Numbered from the stretch's first letter, positions 3,236 through 63,994 are shown. The stretch is DNA of 64,000 nt from Escherichia coli (GCA_032372955.1 GCA_032372955.1_4725.1), one strand, 5' to 3'. The notes: generated by a model from the letters alone, not told the origin. Program-made: numbers and translations.

Positions 3236-3646
3236 ATGGATCATTCGGATAGCGTGATAGCAATGATTACGCCACATCTGTTGCGCAACCTTCCAGCACC
3301 GAACGTCAAAACGAAGAATCATAATCGTCTTCTTGGATTATATCGAGACTGGCGGGATTCTGAAGGATTGACACGGATCGCGAACATCGATGCGGCTTAT
3401 GATGCATTTCGTGACGAACACGATGAAAACGGCAATCTTAAGCCCATTGCAGCGCAGTTACGTAAAGATGTCGGTGATGATGAAGTTCGCGATCTCCGCA
3501 TCTGCGAAGAGGTTGCTACGAAGACCGCTCGGGGGTTAATGTTGCTGGAACTCTTCGGTGAACAAGGCCGTACCGAATTGCAGTCTGAACTTATCGCTTG
3601 CTTCGAAGACACGTTGTTAGAATTTAAAGATCGTCCTCCTTTCTGA
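3236..3646 (+). CDS. hypothetical acidic protein
   Basis: 136-codon ORF, GAGG RBS, followed by stem-loop 3658..3686. Confidence 0.55.
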   Translation: MDHSDSVIAMITPHLLRNLPAPNVKTKNHNRLLGLYRDWRDSEGLTRIANIDAAYDAFRDEHDENGNLKPIAAQLRKDVGDDEVRDLRICEEVATKTARGLMLLELFGEQGRTELQSELIACFEDTLLEFKDRPPF

Positions 3647-3657
3647 TGCATATTACG

Positions 3658-3698
3658 CCTCCTCCTGCCCATGTGGTGGGAGGAGGATGTTTATGCTG
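3658..3698 (+). terminator. stem-loop plus ATGTTTATGCTG (terminator or promoter punctuation)
   Basis: CCTCCTCC(3658-3665)/GGGAGGAGG(3678-3686). Confidence 0.5.
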
Positions 3699-4112
3699 AT
3701 TAAAGGGACGGTTTATTTTAACTGCTTAACACTAGAATGTGAAGACTTAAAGAGGATCCCTGGTATGAGTGATAACGAAAATCGTTCCGTAGCAGTGAAC
3801 TACGTCAACAATTTAATCTTGCAAGAACTTACTCGTGATGCAGTAAGGGCATCAAATAAGCTAGGTTTTATCAACCACCACGGACACATCATCGACATTA
3901 ACAATCCTGACTGCCAGATCGTCGACATACGCAGCCAGGTCGAACACGTCGCTAACGTCATGGTTAAAGCTGAATACTGGCTGGAAACCATGAAAGAGCA
4001 TGTTATCCAACCCCAACAATTAGATATCGACGTTGATGAAATTATTGAACAAGTTGAAGAGTCGTTCAATGAACTTGTCAACCACCGTATCGAAAAAGTT
4101 TTAAAGTTTTAA
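3693..4112 (+). CDS. hypothetical protein (start ambiguous: 3687, 3693 or 3765)
   Basis: ORF in frame with the ATG of the TTTATGCTG motif directly after the stem-loop; the GGGAGGAGG 3' arm could act as an SD; alternative start 3765 has AGAGGA RBS. Confidence 0.45.
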   Translation: MLIKGTVYFNCLTLECEDLKRIPGMSDNENRSVAVNYVNNLILQELTRDAVRASNKLGFINHHGHIIDINNPDCQIVDIRSQVEHVANVMVKAEYWLETMKEHVIQPQQLDIDVDEIIEQVEESFNELVNHRIEKVLKF

Positions 4113-4145
4113 ACGATTGCTAACATTCACCTGAGGAAAAACATA

Positions 4146-4508
4146 ATGAACTTAATTCGCAAATTAACACTGCAAGAACTGGCCCGTCCAATCGGTATTG
4201 AGGCAGCACTGCATGATGAAGATAGCAATGCGCTACAAGTCGCCGTGTTTACAGCAACCACGAACTACGCTGTTGATGTAGGTACCATTGAACCCGTACG
4301 TAGTTTTGAAGAAGATGCAACCGTTATTGATACCGTTGCTCAAAACGTCGCACAGGGTTTGGTTGTACTTGACCTGGCTGGTGATGCTGGTGAAGAAGCA
4401 CTGCGCGAAGCGATGGCTGATTACGCAGCTAACTGGGATACCACCGTCACAATGAAAACATTCGATGGTTCTGAAGAGGAAGATACGGAAGAAGACAGCG
4501 TAGAATAA
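4146..4508 (+). CDS. hypothetical acidic protein
   Basis: 120 codons, GAGGAAAAA RBS, C-terminal SEEEDTEEDSVE. Confidence 0.55.
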   Translation: MNLIRKLTLQELARPIGIEAALHDEDSNALQVAVFTATTNYAVDVGTIEPVRSFEEDATVIDTVAQNVAQGLVVLDLAGDAGEEALREAMADYAANWDTTVTMKTFDGSEEEDTEEDSVE

Positions 4509-4522
4509 TAAACACGAATAAC

Positions 4523-4561
4523 CCTCCCTCTCCCATGCGGAGGTGGGAGGGAATTATGTCG
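4523..4561 (+). terminator. stem-loop plus AATTATGTCG
   Basis: CCCTCCC(4523-4529)/GGGAGGG(4545-4551) with inner CTCC/GGAG pairing. Confidence 0.5.
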
Positions 4562-4665
4562 TTGTTTTTATTTTCCGTTATTTCTGACGGAAATAAAGCA
4601 ATATATGCAAAGGCAACGTATATCCAACATGTCATCTATTTCTACGTAGAAGAGGAAATGAGATT

Positions 4666-5151
4666 ATGGAGATAGCACACGCCAACATATACGGCGATGG
4701 GTTAACGGTATATGAAGAAACATGGGCGAATGAACGAATTGTTTGGCTTAACGGATTCAATGTCAAAACGATCGAGGATCCTTCGTTAGGCGTCGCATAT
4801 ACGTATCCTGTCGATACCTTAGAACAGCTATTTCAGGATATTCGTAACGACCTCATTGAAGTGGAGGGTGTGGATGGAACGGTTTATGGCCGAGTCGATA
4901 AGTTCGGACGTGACCTTCGAGGCGATCATCCAAACATCATTTCTATTGGTGTTTATCCGTATTCGACATTCCCGTTTGTTGATGGCGTTTATGTTATCCG
5001 ACCAAAGTTGGTTGGTGAAGAAAACGTATACCGTAACGATAAAGGATTGCGTGTGACCGAAGTGAGACAGATAAAGGGCTTCATTCTCACGGTTGTTTCG
5101 GATATATCAGACGCTATGGATCCGTACGCTCTACGACAGAAAGCCGGGTAA
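4666..5151 (+). CDS. hypothetical protein
   Basis: 161 codons, AGAGGAAATGAG RBS. Confidence 0.55.
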   Translation: MEIAHANIYGDGLTVYEETWANERIVWLNGFNVKTIEDPSLGVAYTYPVDTLEQLFQDIRNDLIEVEGVDGTVYGRVDKFGRDLRGDHPNIISIGVYPYSTFPFVDGVYVIRPKLVGEENVYRNDKGLRVTEVRQIKGFILTVVSDISDAMDPYALRQKAG

Positions 5152-14018: not shown

Positions 14019-14042
14019 TTTCACGGCTATATTACTTACGTG
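14019..14042 (+). promoter_or_regulatory. candidate phage promoter, TATATTAC-containing conserved motif (copy 1)
   Basis: TTTCACGGCTATATTACTTACGTG, 20/20 nt core identical to 43431..43450; about 45 nt upstream of ATG 14084. Confidence 0.45.
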
Positions 14043-21950: not shown

Positions 21951-22265
21951 ATGTCTGAAAAGCATATTGAAATTCTTGATGCCGCTATCGCTTCGAAAGA
22001 TAGCGGTACATTCATCAAAGCGGTATTTGCAGAACAGCGTAATAACCCAGCAACGCTGAATAAAGTTCGTGATGCAATTGCATTCCGTCTTACCAAGTCA
22101 GATATTTCTGATGTGGATAAAACAACGATGCGTAAATTACGCGACGATCTTAATGCATACATCGCTCGTGGTTGTACGGATAAAACCGTTCGTGAGGTTC
22201 TCGATTCTAACGTGAAATACGAATCAGACTTCAAGAAGAACGGTTCAACACCGAAAACAGAATAA
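21951..22265 (+). CDS. hypothetical protein
   Basis: 104 codons, AAGGAAAGAAG RBS. Confidence 0.5.
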   Translation: MSEKHIEILDAAIASKDSGTFIKAVFAEQRNNPATLNKVRDAIAFRLTKSDISDVDKTTMRKLRDDLNAYIARGCTDKTVREVLDSNVKYESDFKKNGSTPKTE

Positions 22266-22274
22266 CAGCATATT

Positions 22275-22315
22275 CCCTCCTCCTTCCCTGATGGGTTGGA
22301 GGAGGGTTATGTTCG
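22275..22315 (+). terminator. stem-loop plus TTATGTTCG
   Basis: CCCTCCTCC(22275-22283)/GGAGGAGGG(22298-22306) with inner CCC-TGAT-GGG. Confidence 0.5.
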
Positions 22316-22328
22316 TATTGAGGTTAAC

Positions 22329-22628
22329 ATGCTCGATCGTGAACGATTGAAGAAAACGACAAAGCTCCTCGATGAGTTCAGAACCGCGGGTCAATTCGAG
22401 AGCTTCACTAAGAACCGAGCTATTGTTCGATTCCTTCTTTATTTGTGTTGCGTTGATTCGTCAGAGCGGGTTAGCCATACGTGTCCTCTGCTCAACGAAA
22501 ATCGTATTCCGTTATACAAAGCCGAAGAGTTATGTGAGTTCTTGATGAAATTCGGCGTTTTCTGTAACAGATATCGTGGCGATAGATCCGATGGGTATCT
22601 TGTCGAATTTAATGTCTTATTTCATTAA
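22329..22628 (+). CDS. hypothetical protein
   Basis: Track TTG start 22296 lies in the stem-loop; ATG 22329 has GAGG RBS. Confidence 0.4.
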   Translation: MLDRERLKKTTKLLDEFRTAGQFESFTKNRAIVRFLLYLCCVDSSERVSHTCPLLNENRIPLYKAEELCEFLMKFGVFCNRYRGDRSDGYLVEFNVLFH

Positions 22629-26312: not shown

Positions 26313-26453
26313 ATGGCCTGGTCATACCCCTATCGTATTCTGATAGGTGTTAAAAATAAGAAAGGTCCCCGTAAAGGTAAATGGAGATACACCTGGTTAT
26401 GCGGACAGATAGAACTAAAACCAAGGATCTTCTCTGCCTGGAGTAAAAAGTGA
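26313..26453 (+). CDS. small basic protein with KKGPRKGK motif (46 aa)
   Basis: Not in ORF track (<60 aa); TAGGAG RBS; stop overlaps next start. Confidence 0.35.
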   Translation: MAWSYPYRILIGVKNKKGPRKGKWRYTWLCGQIELKPRIFSAWSKK

Positions 26454-26682: not shown

Positions 26683-26874
26683 ATGCAATGTCTCGAAGTG
26701 ACAGAAGCAGGTACGCTAGAATATATCGACCCGATGTATTCATCCCGATTTATCGCCACTCGATATTTGGATCGTGTTTATAACAAACGCGTTAAACGAG
26801 GCCCAGGTAAAGGCAGACAGAAGAAAGTAAGTATTTATAAATGCCATAAAGCGCCTAATCCGGTGTATTATTGA
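26683..26874 (+). CDS. small basic protein with KRGPGKGR motif
   Basis: 63 codons, GAGAGG RBS. Confidence 0.4.
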   Translation: MQCLEVTEAGTLEYIDPMYSSRFIATRYLDRVYNKRVKRGPGKGRQKKVSIYKCHKAPNPVYY

Positions 26875-32440: not shown

Positions 32441-33023
32441 TGCGTGGACGATCATGCCGGATGAAGCTGTTCGCTATGGCTTCCTGAAGAAGCACGCGCC
32501 GAAGCTCATCGATGGTACCATCGGACCGGAACAGGATTTGTTGTATGCCGTGCTGTTTGATGACTATCGTGCGATGGCGGTTTATGGTGAGTCAGGAAAA
32601 GCACACGTCGTAAGCATCGAACGTTACGTGTTTAATGAGCCGGGTGTTAAGGAACAGCTTGATGCCATCATGATGAACACGAAACCCGTACCTGAACATA
32701 TCAAGCTTCAGTTCCTCGAGATGCTGAATCCAGATGAACGGACGGTGCGGCTTATTCGTAACGATCCTGCCACCCAGGAACTCACGGAAGTATTACTGGA
32801 CCTGAAACTGCATGTCGCCCTCGAACGTGCTGAAGGGGGTAAGGTTAATACCTGTATCCGTCAATTCTGTAAATCCCGTGAAGCGAAGGTTAAACACCAT
32901 CAAACACGGAATATCCTGAAAGCGATTCGTTCCGTCGCGTTACCTGAAATTAAAATGAAGGAAGTGCTGTCGTTATACGAAGCTTATATGAACGACGAAG
33001 TCGAATGCGTCGTGAAGTCGTGA
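32415..33023 (+). CDS. hypothetical protein
   Basis: ATG 32415 after GAGGTG RBS; overlaps preceding gene in another frame. Confidence 0.45.
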   Translation: MELVKQPVNAWTIMPDEAVRYGFLKKHAPKLIDGTIGPEQDLLYAVLFDDYRAMAVYGESGKAHVVSIERYVFNEPGVKEQLDAIMMNTKPVPEHIKLQFLEMLNPDERTVRLIRNDPATQELTEVLLDLKLHVALERAEGGKVNTCIRQFCKSREAKVKHHQTRNILKAIRSVALPEIKMKEVLSLYEAYMNDEVECVVKS

Positions 33024-33044
33024 CGAAATAAAAGCATATTGCCT

Positions 33045-33083
33045 GTGTCCCTCCCATCATGGGCGGGCACGGGCGTTATGCTG
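33045..33083 (+). terminator. imperfect GC-rich stem-loop plus GTTATGCTG
   Basis: GTCCCTCCC/GGGCGGGCAC imperfect pairing; TTATGCTG at 33076-33083. Confidence 0.4.
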
Positions 33084-33130
33084 ATGTACATTTTGACAAT
33101 TTTTTGGTTTCGTATGGAGGAAACGACAAC

Positions 33131-36181
<3,051 letters not shown>

Positions 36182-43430: not shown

Positions 43431-43480
43431 TTTTCACGGCTATATTACTTAGGTGAAGCAATGCAGTAATCAGCTTCACC
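43431..43480 (+). promoter_or_regulatory. candidate phage promoter, TATATTAC motif (copy 2), followed by a 5' hairpin
   Basis: TTTTCACGGCTATATTACTTAGGTG then GGTGAAGC(43452-43459)/GCTTCACC(43473-43480). Confidence 0.45.
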
Positions 43481-43521: not shown

Positions 43522-43839
43522 ATGAGTATGTTTAAAATGGCTGTATTCGCTATTCGTAATAATCGCGATATCTTAGGTCATTTGGAAGCCGACGCGGAAG
43601 GAACATTGATTCGTTTCATGCGTCGTGTTAAAGAAGCCTTTGATAATCGCGAGTATCTCGTGGAAGTTGTTGAGGACCTTCCACCGAACTCGATGCGTTT
43701 TGTCGCTATCGATGGGTCCGCAACCGACATCCGTTTCATCACCGTTAACGGAACAATGATGATGTTTTCGGGCGATGATACTGTTACAGGGCTGTTTCCA
43801 ATCGTAACGGTTCTGGGTCATTTCTTACGTGCAAACTAA
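43522..43839 (+). CDS. hypothetical protein
   Basis: 105 codons, AAAGGA RBS; downstream of TATATTAC motif and 5' hairpin. Confidence 0.5.
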   Translation: MSMFKMAVFAIRNNRDILGHLEADAEGTLIRFMRRVKEAFDNREYLVEVVEDLPPNSMRFVAIDGSATDIRFITVNGTMMMFSGDDTVTGLFPIVTVLGHFLRAN

Positions 43840-43841
43840 TC

Positions 43842-43874
43842 AGGCCCCCCTAAATGGGGGGGCCTTTATACCGA
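43842..43874 (+). terminator. stem-loop plus TTTATACCG
   Basis: AGGCCCCCC(43842-43850) TAAAT GGGGGGCCT(43857-43865). Confidence 0.5.
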
Positions 43875-43899
43875 TTTTATTTCAACGAGGATCTTTATC

Positions 43900-44322
43900 A
43901 TGAAACTGTTCAAAAATATCGCATTCGCTATCGTCACCACTCTGGCTTTTGTTAGCACGCAAGCACAGGCTAACTGGATGGCTCGTGGGAATAACTGTTA
44001 CGCCTACAGCGAAGACGGTCGTTATCAGATTGGTATCTCCGATCGTTCGCTTGTTGTCATGGGTCAATTTCAATGCCGTGCGCACTATCCGATGTCTGAT
44101 ACCGTAGGAATCAATGGACGTGTATACCAAGCATTGAATATCTGCAGTCCGGACATGCGTTTGATCCCGGTTATTAGCCTTGCGAATACAGATCAAGCTG
44201 CTAGCGCAATCGCCAGCCTTAAAGAAGCACGTCGTGCGCGTATTCGTGCGTTTAACGAAACCATCATCGTAAATACCGATGATATTCAGGCATGCGCTAA
44301 CAGTGTAGCGGCCGTACGTTAA
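43900..44322 (+). CDS. secreted protein (signal peptide)
   Basis: MKLFKNIAFAIVTTLAFVSTQAQA signal-peptide-like N-terminus. Confidence 0.5.
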   Translation: MKLFKNIAFAIVTTLAFVSTQAQANWMARGNNCYAYSEDGRYQIGISDRSLVVMGQFQCRAHYPMSDTVGINGRVYQALNICSPDMRLIPVISLANTDQAASAIASLKEARRARIRAFNETIIVNTDDIQACANSVAAVR

Positions 44323-44358
44323 TAGGTATTGTAACATTTTACTTTCGAGGAAAATATC

Positions 44359-44709
44359 ATGAAAACGTTAACTAAATTGTTTGTTGCTGTTGCTATTCTG
44401 TTCGGTAGTGTTGTCGGTTCAGCACAGGCTGGATTGCTGGATAGCCCAGAGGTTTACGATAAAGCAAAAGCAATCTACATGGCCATGGAGAGCATGACGC
44501 CAGCAGACCTTGAAGAATGTGGTGTTGATTTCGGTACCCCGAAAGAACTTCCCGGAGTTAAGAACCCTACCAACCCCAGCGTGAAATTGAAAGTGGCAGA
44601 CTTCGAAGTTTTCAACCCCTCTTTCAAGACCTACGCGCGGGTTCGTATACTTGTTGATCCAGCAACCGGTGTTGTTCAGGGCGGTGAATATCTCTATCTG
44701 GGTAAATAA
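44359..44709 (+). CDS. secreted protein (signal peptide)
   Basis: MKTLTKLFVAVAILFGSVVGSAQA signal-peptide-like N-terminus. Confidence 0.5.
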   Translation: MKTLTKLFVAVAILFGSVVGSAQAGLLDSPEVYDKAKAIYMAMESMTPADLEECGVDFGTPKELPGVKNPTNPSVKLKVADFEVFNPSFKTYARVRILVDPATGVVQGGEYLYLGK

Positions 44710-44727
44710 TTGAGTAAGGACAATACG

Positions 44728-44937
44728 ATGATTCCAGCTAACCCTCTTTTAAGTATCAATCCTTTCCACAGCAATCCTGGTGTCGATCAGATACAACCTG
44801 CTTTTTTATCACAGTTCCGGGCTGATTATGATGGCGACACCGTAACTGGAAACAGTATCCGTCTGTTGAATCGCCGCAAGAAAGGTCCAGGTAAAGGCAA
44901 AGTAAAAATCATTCAACGTTTAATCTCTTATGTATAA
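44728..44937 (+). CDS. small basic protein with RADYDGD and KKGPGKGK motifs
   Basis: ATG 44728 after AAGGA RBS (track TTG 44710); QIQPAFLSQFRADYDGDTV resembles the RNAP beta-prime NADFDGD loop; followed by stem-loop 44955..44980. Confidence 0.4.
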   Translation: MIPANPLLSINPFHSNPGVDQIQPAFLSQFRADYDGDTVTGNSIRLLNRRKKGPGKGKVKIIQRLISYV

Positions 44938-44954
44938 ACCAACACTGTTTGATA

Positions 44955-44980
44955 AGTGCCGCCTACATATGGGCGGCACT
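44955..44980 (+). terminator. GC-rich stem-loop
   Basis: AGTGCCGCC(44955-44963)/GGCGGCACT(44972-44980); TCTTTATGTTG about 10 nt downstream. Confidence 0.45.
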
Positions 44981-45110
44981 GCTCTGGTCTTTATGTTGTA
45001 CAACAGTTGTCAAGGAGGTATGTGGGTACGTGCGTTGTTACTCGCATTCGCGTTAGTGATGTTTCTAAAATTTGAATCATCGCTTTATCAGAAAAAGTAA
45101 GAAGGAGTTC

Positions 45111-45305
45111 ATGATGGGACATATGCTACTACGGGGATTAACGGGGATGGTTCTAGCATGGATGGTCATTGGGTTTTGTGGGATGATGTTCTTCATGGTC
45201 GATGAACCTGCTGCCCGAATTAACGTAGGGTTATGGTTCGTCTTCTTGATGATAGCGGTATTCGTTATCGTTACCTTGTTAAGGAATGTAGGAAAGCGCA
45301 AATAA
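45111..45305 (+). CDS. small two-TM membrane protein (holin-like candidate)
   Basis: AAGGAG RBS; two hydrophobic helices, basic C-terminus NVGKRK. Confidence 0.45.
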   Translation: MMGHMLLRGLTGMVLAWMVIGFCGMMFFMVDEPAARINVGLWFVFLMIAVFVIVTLLRNVGKRK

Positions 45306-45321
45306 ACGAACGGGAAAAGCC

Positions 45322-45693
45322 ATGGGTTTAAAGACATACGCAAAAATCTATTTCATTTTCACTTTTATAATGATTGGGATTTCTGCAGCGAATATCGATT
45401 TTGAAACAACGACGGAACGCGTTTATTACGTTATCCGAACCATCGTTTGTGTTATAGGGCAGCTTCCCCTTTTGTATATTTGTACATGGTCGACGCGTAA
45501 CATCAGACGGTTTGTCGTGTATGGGTTCGCGTACGTTCTTTTTATGCTTGTTATGTGGCAGGTCGATGCTCGACTGAGCGATATCGCAAATATCATCGCA
45601 ACGGCGATTCTCAGTGCAACAAGCTGGTGTTTATTTTTACCGATGTGTCGACGTGTCGAGGATGAAGGTTATGGGTATCATGGAGAATCTTAA
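45322..45693 (+). CDS. multi-pass membrane protein
   Basis: Three to four hydrophobic segments. Confidence 0.45.
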   Translation: MGLKTYAKIYFIFTFIMIGISAANIDFETTTERVYYVIRTIVCVIGQLPLLYICTWSTRNIRRFVVYGFAYVLFMLVMWQVDARLSDIANIIATAILSATSWCLFLPMCRRVEDEGYGYHGES

Positions 45694-45982
45694 GTTAACT
45701 AATCGCATCCTTGTCGATAGAGAAGTTGTTTTACGCGAGATACGAAGCGTGATGGCGATCTTTAATCTGGATCATCGATCTGCCATTATGTCTATTCTCT
45801 TGAATAAAACAACCTTTAATATCCGGGAGATACGTCGTATTCACAACGGTATGGAACGACGGCATAAATTAAGCGACGAACTCGTACATTGCGAGTTTAT
45901 ACCGCATCAAGTCTATCGACGTATTTATCGTGATCCATGCCTTCGGGATAAATACAACCTATGGCTCGACGGTAGAGGTTAA
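45671..45982 (+). CDS. hypothetical protein
   Basis: Start uncertain (45662/45671/45680); overlaps upstream gene. Confidence 0.35.
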   Translation: MGIMENLKLTNRILVDREVVLREIRSVMAIFNLDHRSAIMSILLNKTTFNIREIRRIHNGMERRHKLSDELVHCEFIPHQVYRRIYRDPCLRDKYNLWLDGRG

Positions 45983-46234
45983 CATCTTTGAGAAACTATA
46001 TGAATTCAAACGATGTACACCTTTACCGCGTTGGATGCGGGAAATGGGTTCTGTTATCCAACGTTATGTTTATTGCCAAACCAGAGGAGACCGTAATTTC
46101 AGTACCGTTTATTTCTGTCGTGGATGTCGGGCAAACATCTGACGCTAACCTGCTGCCCGCTGAATAGAACAACCCGATGACGGGATGCGTTATCAAGACG
46201 CCAGTGGACAGCACCTTATCGTGAGGTTATTAAG

Positions 46235-46732
46235 ATGCAAGGTATTTTACACACGTTGATTTTAGGGCTTGTTATGTTGCTTATCACACCGTTCAGTCAA
46301 GCATCGGTGAACGCAGGACCTAGAATCGATTGCCGGAAAGAGATCGTCGCATGCGCTGTGTATATGGAAGCCAGAGGCGAATCTGTAAAAGGGCAATACT
46401 CCGTGGCGTTTTTAATACATAATCGATCTATGGACTACCGATTCCCTACGAACGTCAAAGACGTCGTACTGCAAAGAGGTCAATTCCCCTGGACAAAACA
46501 AAGGCGTATTGTCATACGCGATCACGCTGCTTTTGAGCGAGCAAGAGCAATAGCACGAGAGGTCGCAACATTACGTTACACTGACATTGCGGCTTACCAT
46601 AAAGCCGACCCAACACGAGGAGCCGTATTCTTTAACGCGAAACATCTTCGCCCTAAACATTTCAGAAAACATGCTACCAATATCACCGTGGTAGACAGCC
46701 ACATTTTCTTTGGTAAACGACGTCACACGTAA
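46235..46732 (+). CDS. SleB/CwlJ-like cell-wall hydrolase (endolysin candidate) with N-terminal signal or anchor
   Basis: CAVYMEARGES..GQYSVAFLIHNR..FP..VKDVVLQRGQFPW matches the Hydrolase_2 pattern; hydrophobic N-terminus. Confidence 0.65.
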   Translation: MQGILHTLILGLVMLLITPFSQASVNAGPRIDCRKEIVACAVYMEARGESVKGQYSVAFLIHNRSMDYRFPTNVKDVVLQRGQFPWTKQRRIVIRDHAAFERARAIAREVATLRYTDIAAYHKADPTRGAVFFNAKHLRPKHFRKHATNITVVDSHIFFGKRRHT

Positions 46733-46746
46733 AACAAATCCGTATG

Positions 46747-46780
46747 CCCTTCCTGCGTAATGCAGGAAGGGTTTATGCTG
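46747..46780 (+). terminator. stem-loop plus TTTATGCTG
   Basis: CCCTTCCTGC(46747-46756) GTAAT GCAGGAAGGG(46762-46771) TTTATGCTG(46772-46780). Confidence 0.55.
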
Positions 46781-46825
46781 TTAAACTGACTAAATGTAAT
46801 CATCCTAATAAAGAAGGAAATCATC

Positions 46826-47083
46826 ATGAAAACGATCAAAGCAACTAAATCCGTTAAAACAAATAAAACTAACGTTCAGCCGCTGCACCATATCACGGTT
46901 TACCGTAACAAAGATAACGCCATCACCAAGTTCCGCGTTCGTGTAAAAGCGGCTGAATCCGTATTAGAGAAATTGGTTGATATGACGGTTTCTGTCGATG
47001 CCTATGATTCGTATCAGAAAGCAATGCTGGCAGCAATTCAAATCCGCGATAAAGCGCTGAACAACCCAATCAACGCATTTTAA
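46826..47083 (+). CDS. hypothetical basic protein
   Basis: 85 codons, AAGGAAA RBS. Confidence 0.45.
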   Translation: MKTIKATKSVKTNKTNVQPLHHITVYRNKDNAITKFRVRVKAAESVLEKLVDMTVSVDAYDSYQKAMLAAIQIRDKALNNPINAF

Positions 47084-47212
47084 TTACTTAGCAACTTAGC
47101 AAACGGTTCTTCTCTTCCTGAAGCTGTGGAGGGGAAGAACCAGAAAGGAGTAATTATGTTTTCTTTTGTTGTCAGCGAAGAACAATTAGCGAAATTCAAA
47201 TAACGTGCATGG

Positions 47213-47656
47213 ATGGCTATCAAGGAAGGAGTCATTGAACCCGGAATATTACCCGCGTGCCAGGCGTTGTTAGATGCGCCTGGTGTTGCACCGATGTGGT
47301 CATGCGAAGGACACGATAATGTAACCCGTAAAGTGGTCGTTGATGGGAAAACAAGCACAAAGGTTGTTCGTAAGCACCCGCACGTTATCGTCGCTGTAAC
47401 GACCGAAGGGTTGTCTTATATAGACGCTATAGGTGAATGCTTACGACGCCAACCCGCTGATTATATTTGGCGAATTGGGGTTAACAGATTGAGCGATCCC
47501 ACCAAAGAAGATGACACGTCGGAGACACTCTATTGGGCTTGGGATATCCACTCGGTTAATTTCAAACATCGCGATGGCGGGACAATGGAGGAACGCGGTC
47601 AACGATTAAACGCTGCTATTCTGGAAGCGGTAGAGTTCGTAAAGAACAAGAATTAA
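47213..47656 (+). CDS. hypothetical protein
   Basis: 147 codons; weak RBS. Confidence 0.45.
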   Translation: MAIKEGVIEPGILPACQALLDAPGVAPMWSCEGHDNVTRKVVVDGKTSTKVVRKHPHVIVAVTTEGLSYIDAIGECLRRQPADYIWRIGVNRLSDPTKEDDTSETLYWAWDIHSVNFKHRDGGTMEERGQRLNAAILEAVEFVKNKN

Positions 47657-48483: not shown

Positions 48484-49055
48484 ATTGGATTAAGGTAGTG
48501 TTGTTTATTATACTTGTTGCTGTATCTATCGGACTATTCTTTTACACACGTCGGAAAGAACAGAAACGTAAACCGAGCAGACCGTTGGTTACCGGTGTTG
48601 TAACACCCGCAAAACAGTCTGAATTACCTAAATCGCTTTATATGACGGAAGTGACTTTAGATGCATCTAAAGGCAATGAGCTTGTGCTCGAAATGTTAAT
48701 GCAGAAACATTATAAAGATGCTGTATTGACTGCCGAGTATTGGGTTGATCCTAACAGGCCAGGCAAACGCTGGCGCGCATGGTATCCTTTACATGTGCCG
48801 TGCACAAACACCTGGATTGAGTGGCCTGCATTGGTTAGCTATCGTTCAACCGATAAAGCGAACAAAGCAGCGTTCTTCTTAGACACCAATCGTTTCAAAT
48901 GGTATCCCGATAAGGTAACGAATGAGCCGGTATGGATGCCTAAGAAAGGTGGTACGTGCTTTACTGTTGGACAAGTCCTGTTAACAGATTTGGACGACCA
49001 GAACAACTTCTTTGTCATTGAAGAAGAAAAGCTTAACGATCTGATTCCTTACTAA
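48480..49055 (+). CDS. membrane-anchored protein (N-terminal TM helix)
   Basis: WIKVVLFIILVAVSIGLFFY followed by RRKEQKRK; followed by strong intrinsic terminator. Confidence 0.5.
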   Translation: MNWIKVVLFIILVAVSIGLFFYTRRKEQKRKPSRPLVTGVVTPAKQSELPKSLYMTEVTLDASKGNELVLEMLMQKHYKDAVLTAEYWVDPNRPGKRWRAWYPLHVPCTNTWIEWPALVSYRSTDKANKAAFFLDTNRFKWYPDKVTNEPVWMPKKGGTCFTVGQVLLTDLDDQNNFFVIEEEKLNDLIPY

Positions 49056-49075
49056 TCGTTCGATATAACGGTACA

Positions 49076-49134
49076 CGGTGTTCATCCCTAAAAAGGATGA
49101 ACACCGTTTTCCTATTTTTCGTTTTTTTTTTTTG
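49076..49134 (+). terminator. strong Rho-independent terminator (12-bp stem plus long T tract)
   Basis: CGGTGTTCATCC(49076-49087)/GGATGAACACCG(49095-49106) then TTTTCCTATTTTTCGTTTTTTTTTTTT. Confidence 0.75.
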
Positions 49135-58708: not shown

Positions 58709-59215
58709 ATGACAAAGAAACTTTGCGCGATCGTTCTTGGTATGCTGATGGTGCTTTCTCTGGGTGGGTGTGCTACGCTGGAAGGTTTACCGAACCTGGA
58801 TAAAGACCTGACGCAACTGGTGGGGTTAAAACCTGTTGAGAAGAACAGCAATCTCGCTGTGTATTCTTGCTGGGGTGCAACCCAGGAATTCGAACATTGG
58901 AAACCGAAGTTCTCAACCACTGAAATCTGGAACGATAAGGTTCTGGTTGTGGATGAAGGTAGTCAATTTACCGTTGACTCTCCGGTAACCGTTTTCGAGT
59001 CCACCCAGTTGTATACCACGGTGAAAGACTACGTTGACCTGGGGTTCAATACCGCAACCAGCGAACGCTTCTACCGCATGAACAAACCAACATTGTCTTA
59101 CGCAAGTTCAACCCTGAACTCGAACGGCGATGGTGTTGGGATGGTCTTCTTCAATTGTTCTACCGACCGTGCATTGATCGCTGATCCCAACTCCATTGAG
59201 GTTATCAGTAAGTAA
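58709..59215 (+). CDS. lipoprotein (signal peptide with lipobox-like LGGC)
   Basis: MTKKLCAIVLGMLMVLSLGGC N-terminus. Confidence 0.55.
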   Translation: MTKKLCAIVLGMLMVLSLGGCATLEGLPNLDKDLTQLVGLKPVEKNSNLAVYSCWGATQEFEHWKPKFSTTEIWNDKVLVVDEGSQFTVDSPVTVFESTQLYTTVKDYVDLGFNTATSERFYRMNKPTLSYASSTLNSNGDGVGMVFFNCSTDRALIADPNSIEVISK

Positions 59216-63269: not shown

Positions 63270-63644
63270 ATGGCTGATACCACCCCACCATGGATCGATC
63301 TGAATGTGCATCTTGTCTGGCGTTACGCTGGACGTTACACCCACGCGCACGATTTTAACGACGGTAAACTTAGTTATTACAGCATCGCTTTTACCGAAGC
63401 ACAAATACGTGCGTGGTTCGCTCAACTGAATTATCCCAATTTGATTGCAAAGAAAAGCTATTCAATGTCAAGAACACGATTAACTGTGACATTGGAGCTG
63501 TTCAATAAATCAACGTGGGTTGACGCGTACCGGCTTCGTGAGGTTATTGATAGGCAGTTCCGTAAGCATCGTCATGAAGTGCCATCAATGCCGAAGAAAG
63601 ATCCTATTGTTCCACCGGAAGATGCCATCTGGAACGAACATTAA
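63270..63644 (+). CDS. hypothetical protein
   Basis: 124 codons. Confidence 0.5.
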   Translation: MADTTPPWIDLNVHLVWRYAGRYTHAHDFNDGKLSYYSIAFTEAQIRAWFAQLNYPNLIAKKSYSMSRTRLTVTLELFNKSTWVDAYRLREVIDRQFRKHRHEVPSMPKKDPIVPPEDAIWNEH

Positions 63645-63659
63645 TAACATAACAGCATA

Positions 63660-63698
63660 AGCCCTCTCCCAACCCGTAAGGGAAGGGAGAGGGCTATG
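63660..63698. terminator. stem-loop with 14-nt loop AACCCGTAAGGGAA between convergent genes; CTATG follows
   Basis: AGCCCTCTCCC(63660-63670)/GGGAGAGGGCT(63685-63695). Confidence 0.55.
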
Positions 63699-63709
63699 TT
63701 ACCTTTACA

Positions 63710-63994
63710 TTAGAACAAGTAGAAATGAACGTTTGGTACGGTGGCAAGATACTGTTTGATTTGTGCGCGTACCCATTGAGGCTGGATTGTCTCGGATTGT
63801 CCGTAACCGATATTACCGCAACCAGAACCGACCGGAGGAATTGCAACGATCAGCGGTTCAGCCGGACGCCGATATGAGAAGCCGTCTCTTTCGAACTGAA
63901 GCTCCAATAACCACGCTTTTAACGCCAGTAAACCGTTAACGATATACTCGCGTCGTGTTCTTTCGCGCCAATCCGATTTTGATGGAAACAACAC
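63710..63994 (-). CDS. hypothetical protein (near window edge)
   Basis: Minus-strand ORF converging on stem-loop 63660..63695. Confidence 0.4.
   Translation of the reverse strand: MLFPSKSDWRERTRREYIVNGLLALKAWLLELQFERDGFSYRRPAEPLIVAIPPVGSGCGNIGYGQSETIQPQWVRAQIKQYLATVPNVHFYLF

Follow-up and report, generated by a model that had tools for sequence, protein, structure and literature searches.

A candidate lysis module with a predicted secreted SleB-like hydrolase and a putative structured mRNA leader in a Goslar-type jumbo phage

In the signal-anchor-release (SAR) endolysin and pinholin systems, such as R21 and S21 of phage 21 and Lyz of P1, and with the Sec-exported endolysin Lys44 of Oenococcus phage fOg44, the lytic enzyme becomes periplasmic via Sec without a large-hole holin. 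In phage T4, a hairpin in the mRNA of gene e, the lysozyme gene, masks the ribosome binding site (RBS) in early transcripts. Both cases serve as points of comparison for the locus described here, a SleB/CwlJ-family hydrolase gene with its upstream neighbors and the structured region preceding it, located in a 64-kb stretch of DNA from an Escherichia coli assembly (GCA_032372955.1; the window, in whose positions all coordinates are given). From 44000 to 47500 the window is 94.2% identical in nucleotide sequence, over the full length, to Escherichia phage vB_EcoM_Goslar, a nucleus-forming jumbo phage of the Chimalliviridae with a genome of 237 kb, and its gene order is that of Goslar (NC_048170 / MK327938), whose genes gp098 to gp104 recur as the same genes in the same order and lend their names to those of the window. 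In Goslar, gp098 is annotated as ‘endolysin’ (RefSeq) or ‘putative cell wall hydrolase’ (GenBank), its neighbors are all hypothetical, the gap in front of it is unannotated and a small gene that we term orf56 is missing. We found no published function for gp098 to gp104 in the literature on Goslar, and in the reviews and Goslar papers searched no lysis gene of a nucleus-forming jumbo phage is named, such genes being essentially uncharacterized. Neither the enzyme, which belongs to an abundant family, nor its annotation is new; what this work adds is the structured and conserved leader, orf56 as an unannotated gene and the dispensability of gp100. Comparisons were made with Goslar-type relatives (L006–L014) and with one distant relative, L020, a 180-kb metagenomic contig with a hydrolase that is 51% identical.

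Our preferred reading, to which we assign a probability of roughly 0.45, is that the locus is a module of a Sec-exported endolysin and pinholin-like partners under a cis-acting RNA leader, possibly working alongside gp024, a second hydrolase encoded outside the window. An envelope-directed module would then lie between terminator-like hairpins at 43842 and 46748, and gp098 would be exported by Sec before lysis as a basic, 16-kDa periplasmic enzyme that cleaves glycan strands, i.e. as a secretory endolysin. The leader would throttle or time its output, at translation initiation and/or at a hairpin-TATG junction at its hairpin H2, while orf56 and gp101 would form a pinholin-type trigger that depolarizes the membrane and thereby sets off the periplasmic enzyme, in the manner of SAR-type and signal-peptide endolysin systems. 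A second lysis route may be provided by gp024, a cytoplasmic GH108 enzyme. We consider the lysis idea reasonable but unproven.

The hydrolase gene, located like all features of the locus on the + strand (46235–46732), encodes a protein of 165 residues that shares 99% identity with Goslar gp098. A SleB-like hydrolase with a hydrophobic N-terminus had been noted here in the initial annotation, and profile, fold and alignment all agree with it. The protein matches PF07486 (Hydrolase_2) with E = 4.2e-16 and 59.8 bits against a gathering score of 27, covering profile positions 1–100 of 100, and it also matches PHROG ‘endolysin’ families. With phmmer, residues 36–97 align to the catalytic domains of Bacillus SleB (4F55, 4FET), placing VYMEARGE opposite YGESRGE, and in an alignment of 40 homologues of 27–90% identity the residues E45, R47, R64, F84 and H156 are invariant. 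We take E45, within the motif Y-x-E-[AS]-R-G-E, to be the catalytic Glu. An AlphaFold model built on this 40-homologue alignment reached a predicted local distance difference test (pLDDT) score of 89.9, and Foldseek returned the SleB catalytic domains 4F55 and 4FET as its sole significant matches in the PDB (probability 1.00, target-normalized template-modelling score 0.71–0.73). As judged from profile and model, gp098 is a SleB-fold murein hydrolase of predicted activity. It shares catalytic fold and Glu motif with Bacillus SleB and CwlJ at 22–24% identity, but it is not a SleB equivalog, because TIGR02869, the Bacillus SleB equivalog profile, scores only 41.5 bits against a cut-off of 236.5, with the C-terminal domain alone aligning, and because a signal sequence takes the place of the N-terminal peptidoglycan (PG)-binding domain. 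Unlike the setting in which SleB acts, the E. coli host contains neither a spore cortex nor a muramic-delta-lactam substrate.

The N-terminus of gp098 looks like a cleavable Sec signal peptide. Residues 1–23 (46235–46303; MQGILHTLILGLVMLLITPFSQA, followed by Ser), delimited by hydropathy and by inspection, comprise a Leu/Ile-rich core, a proline at –6 and S-Q-A at –3 to –1, and in residues 3–21 the amino acids L/I/V/M/F make up 12 of 19 positions and G/A/S/T 5 of 19. The n-region holds no Lys or Arg. We favor a cleavable signal peptide over a SAR anchor because the segment is rich in Leu/Ile rather than Gly/Ala and is followed by a site of the signal peptidase I (SPase I) type, and the same cleavable-type N-terminus is carried by orthologues and homologues. 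An assignment as a SAR endolysin was rejected, as the segment is not of the G/A/S/T-rich, uncleaved transmembrane kind; gp098 further differs from these enzymes in belonging to another enzyme family, and no homology to an S21-type pinholin was found. By analogy, the small depolarizing holin with two transmembrane helices of the SAR/pinholin systems would nevertheless match a trigger of the gp101 type. The predicted mature enzyme has 142 residues and an isoelectric point of 10.6. Directly in front of the catalytic motif, at 46327–46354 (residues 31–40), lies a Cys-x6-Cys pair that is shared with the homologues of Arash, rV5-like phages and L020, while T5-like homologues have a single Cys instead; in the periplasm the two cysteines may be linked by a disulfide close to the active site.

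The SleB fold had initially been regarded as unusual for phages of Gram-negative hosts. This claim is wrong, because homologues abound in phages of Escherichia, Salmonella and Klebsiella: a tblastn search found them in 1,043 phage records, the majority of them for phages that infect enterobacteria (380, 285 and 122 records for the three genera, respectively), and a full HMMER scan yielded 3,244 cluster representatives. Among the best 150 of these 3,244 an N-terminal hydrophobic leader is present in 137 and the Glu motif in 131, and all five phage homologues inspected (Arash, A73, PcCB7V, DevonBitter and KEY) have textbook signal peptides. The closest described arrangement is that of the Vequintavirinae, throughout which SleB-like proteins with signal peptides occur that are toxic in E. 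coli and are encoded beside a 65-aa putative class II holin with two transmembrane helices (PMC7344957). These proteins (CB7_83 of Pectobacterium phage CB7, adjoined by CB7_82 as putative class II holin; Cronobacter CR3_087; A73_73/74 of Escherichia phage A73) consist of a signal peptide and a single Hydrolase_2 domain, are 30–36% identical to gp098 and share with it the Cys-x6-Cys pair and the YxEARGE motif. Beside them stands an open reading frame (ORF) of 65–70 codons for a two-helix protein with a basic tail, an arrangement also seen in phage A73, and the genomes hold the gene for another enzyme, of the lysozyme type, at a separate location. The differences are threefold: in Vequintavirinae the two-helix ORF and the 3′ end of the hydrolase gene overlap, whereas gp101 of the window is located 0.9 kb upstream; the two have no sequence similarity; and the upstream gaps of 12–65 nt in Vequintavirinae leave no room for a long structured leader, of which there is none.

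The candidate partners of the enzyme are two small membrane proteins. The first, gp101 (45111–45305, 64 aa), bears out the two-helix protein with a basic tail of the initial annotation: hydropathy places helices at residues ~9–30 and 39–57 (Kyte-Doolittle values 2.16 and 2.91), followed by the tail RNVGKRK. With a Gly/Met-rich, moderately hydrophobic first and a strongly hydrophobic second helix it resembles pinholins in architecture only, and on hydropathy it has the class II holin layout of a small protein with two transmembrane segments and a charged C-terminus. Its dN/dS ratio of 0.13 reveals purifying selection. A candidate relationship with two-helix ORFs beside SleB-like genes elsewhere, such as A73_74, was dismissed, as no homology was found. 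The second protein, orf56 (44930–45100, 56 aa), has a hydrophobic segment at residues 30–48 and a charged C-terminus, YQKK; together with gp099 (45671–45982) it had been overlooked before. It behaves as a real gene, with a dN/dS of 0.18 over 8 relatives, calls by gene finders in L011 and L012, and a homologue in L020 that is 36% identical. Both proteins are of holin-like build and retain their positions in L020, where the 66-aa two-helix ORF at the position of gp101 shows no sequence similarity to it. A third membrane protein, gp100 (45322–45693, 123 aa), is the multi-pass protein reported before, with four hydrophobic segments by hydropathy; its matches to FtsW/RodA (E = 0.04–0.08) were discarded as hydrophobic noise.

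The gap between gp099 and the hydrolase gene had been described as 250 nt of non-coding sequence, which holds in so far as no coding sequence is annotated there in Goslar, but gene finders do call a 55-codon ORF in it, and the gap emerged as the most constrained sequence of the locus and, by prediction, as a structured RNA. Over its 252 nt there are 2 mismatches to Goslar, against an identity of 94–96% in the flanking genes. In L007, which is 85% identical overall, positions 45965–46164 are 98–100% identical and the flanks 66–92%, and across ten relatives we count 8 variable sites in ~200 nt versus ~20 in the 50 nt immediately upstream. We discarded recombination as the source of this pattern: blocks of at least 98% identity do exist elsewhere in the comparison with L006, but against L007 the leader block stands out, and the proportion of synonymous differences (pS) in its ORF is 0. 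A homologous leader is found in L020, in a 264-nt gap of its own. A search of 45600–46900 with cmscan against Rfam 15 (E up to 10) returned two chance-level matches only, both outside the leader, and no tRNA or tmRNA was detected within it. It is not a repeated element: with nhmmer a single copy was recovered from the window, and the ~220 kb of Goslar sequence covered by the search held no additional one. Motif scans of public collections retrieved Goslar-like genomes only, and the more distant P0034 and P0035 reside on short contigs without the leader.

The fold of this region is pronounced. The sense strand folds to –96.6 kcal/mol with z = –4.82, a value reached by 0 of 200 shuffles, while the antisense strand gives z = –2.85. 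For a 170-nt core z is approximately –5.9, which ranks 3rd among 752 such segments over the 64 kb (top 0.5%), the rank being approximate with 14 shuffles per segment. Further 170-nt segments with z of –5 or below are located at 48964–49133, 22189–22358, 63584–63753, 3574–3743 and 32984–33153, and several of them overlap intergenic hairpins. The minimum free energy (MFE) structure and that from RNAalifold agree on two domains. In domain I (45964–46132) a closing helix P0, which begins within the last codons of gp099, so that the last ~18 nt of that gene form its 5′ strand, encloses three hairpins, H1, H2 and H3. Of these, H2 (46028–46064) has 15 bp and the apical sequence GGGAAAUGGG, and it is directly followed by an invariant single-stranded motif, TATGTTTATTGCCAAACCAGAGGAG (UAUGUUUnUUGCCAAACCAnAGGAG; 46064–46088), which contains TATG, is identical in all Goslar-type copies and differs at 2 positions in L020. 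Domain II (46137–46228) is a long, interrupted hairpin of 21 bp with z = –3.3. Both of its arms hardly vary among ten relatives, L007 and L014 have a different sequence in its apical part, and its 3′ arm is predicted to pair with the Shine-Dalgarno (SD) sequence of the hydrolase, GAGG (46223–46226), 8 nt ahead of the ATG.

Covariation was assessed from a hand alignment of two lineages only, the Goslar-type sequences and L020, and amounts to ten compensatory pair changes in total. Of 14 bp compared in H2, six carry compensatory double changes, four carry single changes compatible with pairing, and none is broken; the 21 bp of domain II show three compensatory doubles and two breaks, while P0 retains 6 of 7 pairs, with one compensatory double and one break. 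Nucleotide constraint, sense-strand stability, covariation and overlap with the RBS together point to a structured mRNA leader, the regulatory role of which is putative. That the ~270 nt from 45964 to 46234 represent an undescribed class of phage cis-regulatory RNA, present in at least two Goslar-related lineages and gating the Sec-exported hydrolase, is a proposal that we regard as possible but rather doubtful.

A simpler explanation for the gap would be that the 55-codon ORF (46000–46167) is a small protein-coding gene missed in the annotation of Goslar, rather than part of an RNA element. It is intact in 10 of 10 Goslar-type copies, it is called by gene finders and an SD-like GAG precedes it; in L020 the ATG at the equivalent position opens a reading frame of 72 codons that shares the peptides MF(I/V)AKP and DANLL. 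These shared peptides, however, are encoded by nucleotide-identical segments in which even third codon positions are unchanged. All 8 variable sites of the ORF are nonsynonymous, and nine comparisons taken together yield 21 nonsynonymous differences and not a single synonymous one, whereas neighboring genes show a pS of 0.23–0.41. As pS is 0 in the ORF, the constraint acts on the nucleotides and not on a protein, and the ORF is probably not constrained as a protein. With no family match, and given the strong sense-strand fold with its covariation, we consider the small gene decidedly unlikely.

Several modes of action are conceivable for the leader if it is a cis-regulatory element. Gating could possibly occur through H2 as an attenuator or as a terminator-promoter junction, through ribosome standby and masking of the SD sequence, or through a binding site for a phage factor, e.g. 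gp099. A GC-rich hairpin followed by T(T)TATGC is found at seven intergenic + strand sites of the window (4555, 5350, 15860, 24593, 39910, 46774 and 53729), one of which, at 46774, directly follows the hydrolase gene and is conserved with compensatory changes in its stem. TATG is the core of the late promoter of phiKZ, where transcription starts at its G (PMC4666361), and by analogy the seven sites may be combined terminators and phiKZ-type late promoters. Because H2 and its TATG have this same layout, the hydrolase may form a late unit of its own that starts near 46067, with H2 as a terminator or attenuator for transcription from upstream. Alternatively, the leader may act on translation instead. 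Coupling via translation of the 55-codon ORF, the 3′ end of which covers the 5′ arm of domain II, is possible, as is binding of the leader by the adjacent gp099 (45671–45982), a basic, all-helical protein of 103 residues. A recognizable RNA- or DNA-binding fold could not be assigned to gp099, as its AlphaFold model is too weak (pLDDT 61) and a CaiF-like match with E = 0.037 is noise.

The comparison with T4 gene e is instructive. In both cases the gene for a lysis enzyme, here a candidate one, is preceded by an RNA structure that pairs with the SD sequence, but the leader of the window is ~270 nt long and comprises several domains, and its predicted RBS accessibility is independent of the transcript start: for SD and AUG the value is 0.15–0.32 whether transcription begins upstream, at either TATG or in the apical loop. 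An unusually masked RBS was likewise discarded, since the hydrolase ranks 15th lowest in predicted accessibility among 76 genes and is no outlier. With an accessibility that is both unexceptional and hardly altered by the assumed 5′ end, a switch of the T4 gene e type is unsupported.

These accessibility values weigh against the module as we propose it, and so do a number of further observations. The membrane proteins of the cluster have no match among the holin families in Pfam, PHROGs and NCBIfam. Homologues of gp101 are restricted to Goslar-like phages (19 clusters, 76–98% identity), those of orf56 are confined to the Goslar-related phage group, and although gp101 shares the strand and the apparent hairpin-bounded unit of the hydrolase gene, it is found 0.93 kb and two to three genes upstream of it. 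The gene for gp100 is missing from L006, L009 and L010 and present in L011–L014, so that it is dispensable and not a core component. For a freely secreted enzyme, gp098 shows no evident latch. In the T5-like loci inspected and in Arash, the SleB-like gene has no membrane-protein neighbor, and in T5-like and PVP-SE1-like phages it coexists with a separate endolysin that is holin-linked or characterized. Finally, no spanin was found: a lipobox scan of all ORFs of at least 40 codons returned none in 43800–47100, and gp104 and gp103 have SPase-I-type sites and no Cys. Spanin candidates beside gp024 were also dismissed, as gp027 and gp028 are without a transmembrane segment. The single ORF of the window with a good lipobox, at 58709–59215 with the signal MTKKLCAIVLGMLMVLSLGGC, encodes the homologue of Goslar gp088, a protein reported at more than 200 copies per virion, and having no C-terminal transmembrane helix it is not a u-spanin.

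A competing explanation arises from gp024. Located outside the window, Goslar gp024 is a protein of 211 residues with a GH108 and a PG_binding_3 domain and no hydrophobic segment, encoded as the last gene in an operon of tail-fibre genes in a late or structural region. By its domains it is a candidate for the canonical soluble endolysin, which also speaks against assigning lysis to gp098. In the main rival to our reading, which we take to be a serious possibility if not the favored one, gp098 is an accessory periplasmic wall-remodelling enzyme and lysis is brought about by gp024 with another holin. The accessory enzyme would loosen the sacculus over the long cycle of a jumbo phage or condition the wall for a faster final lysis, and its neighbors would have separate roles in the envelope, e.g. 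in superinfection exclusion. The classic endolysin architecture of gp024 is in line with this, as are the positions of gp098 among small accessory genes rather than in a structural block and the variable content of the cluster among relatives (gp100, gp096). The SleB-like family, moreover, consists mostly of exported single-domain proteins and is widespread well beyond phages. In T5-like Salmonella phages an M15 peptidase gene adjoins the holin and the SleB-domain protein is encoded elsewhere (PMC11180984). The same two-hydrolase layout is present in PVP-SE1-like and BME3 phages, and in all three groups it is the other enzyme that adjoins a holin or sits in a structural module; given the separate endolysins of T5-like and PVP-SE1-like phages, the family is often a second hydrolase. 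On the other hand, gp024 is itself only a candidate endolysin, and a strongly basic secreted hydrolase, of a type reported to be toxic in E. coli, would be hard to keep harmless. The holin-like orf56 and gp101 are conserved alongside gp098 even in L020, and the tight conservation of the leader suggests that dose or timing are critical, as would be expected of a lysis enzyme.

In a further rival reading gp098 is a virion-associated entry lysin that opens the cell wall for genome injection. In line with this, gp104 and gp103, secreted proteins of the same cluster, were detected in a preparation of purified Goslar virions, with ~39 copies of the former and ~29 of the latter. Both gp098 and gp024, however, are absent from the published virion proteome, which lists proteins, trace contaminants included, down to ~0.1 copy per virion, and this absence speaks against such a role. 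Chimallin and PhuZ, i.e. carry-over, were contained in the virion preparation as well, and a Sec signal peptide directs gp098 to the periplasm, away from the cytoplasmic assembly of virions. We consider an entry lysin extremely improbable.

The two secreted proteins reported upstream of the membrane proteins correspond to gp104 (43900–44322, 140 aa) and gp103 (44359–44709, 116 aa), whose predicted Sec signal peptides both end in AQA (TQAQA followed by NW, and GSAQA followed by GL, respectively, from hydropathy). With dN/dS ratios of 0.15 and 0.22 they are fused in L020 to an ORF of 232 codons (2010–2708), the C-terminal half of which is gp103, and as a consequence of this fusion we assume that they act together. 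The unit appears to open with a GC-rich hairpin followed by TTTATACCG (43842–43865), read from the list of intergenic sequences, kept in Goslar-type relatives and inferred to act as a terminator, and to close with the hairpin-TATG junction behind the hydrolase gene (46748–46777, hairpin followed by TTTATGCTG), found in the intergenic scan and kept in 8 relatives with compensatory stem changes. A scan for sigma-70 promoters and terminators was set aside as uninformative for this phage.

The grouping of these genes might also be a coincidence, in that unrelated accessory ‘moron’ genes have gathered in a variable region without a shared pathway. Genes are gained and lost here, as seen for gp100, gp096 and an extra 102-aa gene in L012–L014, and only the hydrolase has a family assignment. 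In L020 the gp104-gp103 fusion is followed by an 80-aa two-helix ORF, the homologue of orf56, the basic-tailed 66-aa two-helix ORF and three unrelated ORFs, after which a long gap leads to the hydrolase. The conserved order is not specific to the cluster, because synteny extends over all of its surroundings as far as the tail genes. Against a coincidence stands the finding that 6 of 10 consecutive products carry a transmembrane or signal segment, compared with ~12% of ORFs window-wide, which is a modest enrichment. The set is enclosed by terminator hairpins, L020 has gp104 and gp103 as a single fusion protein, and the core order of secreted proteins, small membrane proteins, leader and hydrolase persists down to 51% identity of the hydrolase. 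On balance a coincidental grouping seems unlikely to us.

Returning to the endolysin module, the lysis cluster that the initial annotation had proposed is thus upheld in part. The murein hydrolase fold, the predicted signal peptide, the absence from the virion proteome and the conserved holin-like proteins speak for it; the lack of a holin-family match, the dispensable gp100, the missing spanin and the second endolysin candidate gp024 do not.

Among the remaining genes of the unit, gp102 (44728–44937) encodes a soluble protein of 69 residues with a cationic C-terminus (RRKKGPGKGKVKIIQRLISYV) and a dN/dS of 0.32. It was considered as a disruptin-like cationic peptide and rejected, as despite a net charge of +6 its hydrophobic moment does not exceed 0.46 and a GPG sequence breaks the helix. 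Several small ORFs share a cationic motif close to their C-termini, [KR][KR]GP[GR]KG[KR] with hydrophobic residues behind it, which in the window is located at 26358–26381, 26794–26817 and, in gp102, at 44878–44901; in L020 it occurs in the ORFs 3341–4249 and 4452–4736, beside the leader. Directly downstream of the hydrolase gene, the homologue of gp096 (47156–47656) is the most divergent gene of the region, with 83% nucleotide identity to Goslar, and it is missing from L006, L007 and L012, marking a hotspot of gene turnover. The extra 102-aa gene of L012–L014 (2382–2690) is inserted between gp105 and gp104 and is preceded by a hairpin and GTTATGTTG, where the window has a hairpin and TTTATACCG. 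The sequence TTCACGGCTATATTACTTA is shared by 14019–14040 and 43432–43452, upstream of genes that include the homologue of gp105. It is similar to the AT-rich core of early promoters in phiKZ-like phages; for GCTATATTAC by itself there is no enrichment over chance. Goslar-like contigs of genome size (P0005, P0011 and P0027; 239–248 kb) are also present in NCBI assemblies labelled Salmonella enterica and Escherichia coli, which suggests that phages were carried by the sequenced isolates or contaminated them, and that Salmonella belongs to the host range.

For the hydrolase, the value of the present result is to correct the idea that the enzyme is exotic. Goslar-type phages are predicted to have a soluble and a secreted wall hydrolase that are unrelated to each other, and because Goslar is genetically tractable by RNA-targeting knock-down (PMC10541120), which of the two enzymes lyses the host can be tested directly. 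The leader is a candidate for control of lysis at the level of RNA and a new RNA motif for family databases. If its proposed role is true, a leader RNA would set the timing of lysis in a phage that first has to export its mRNAs from a nucleus made of protein.

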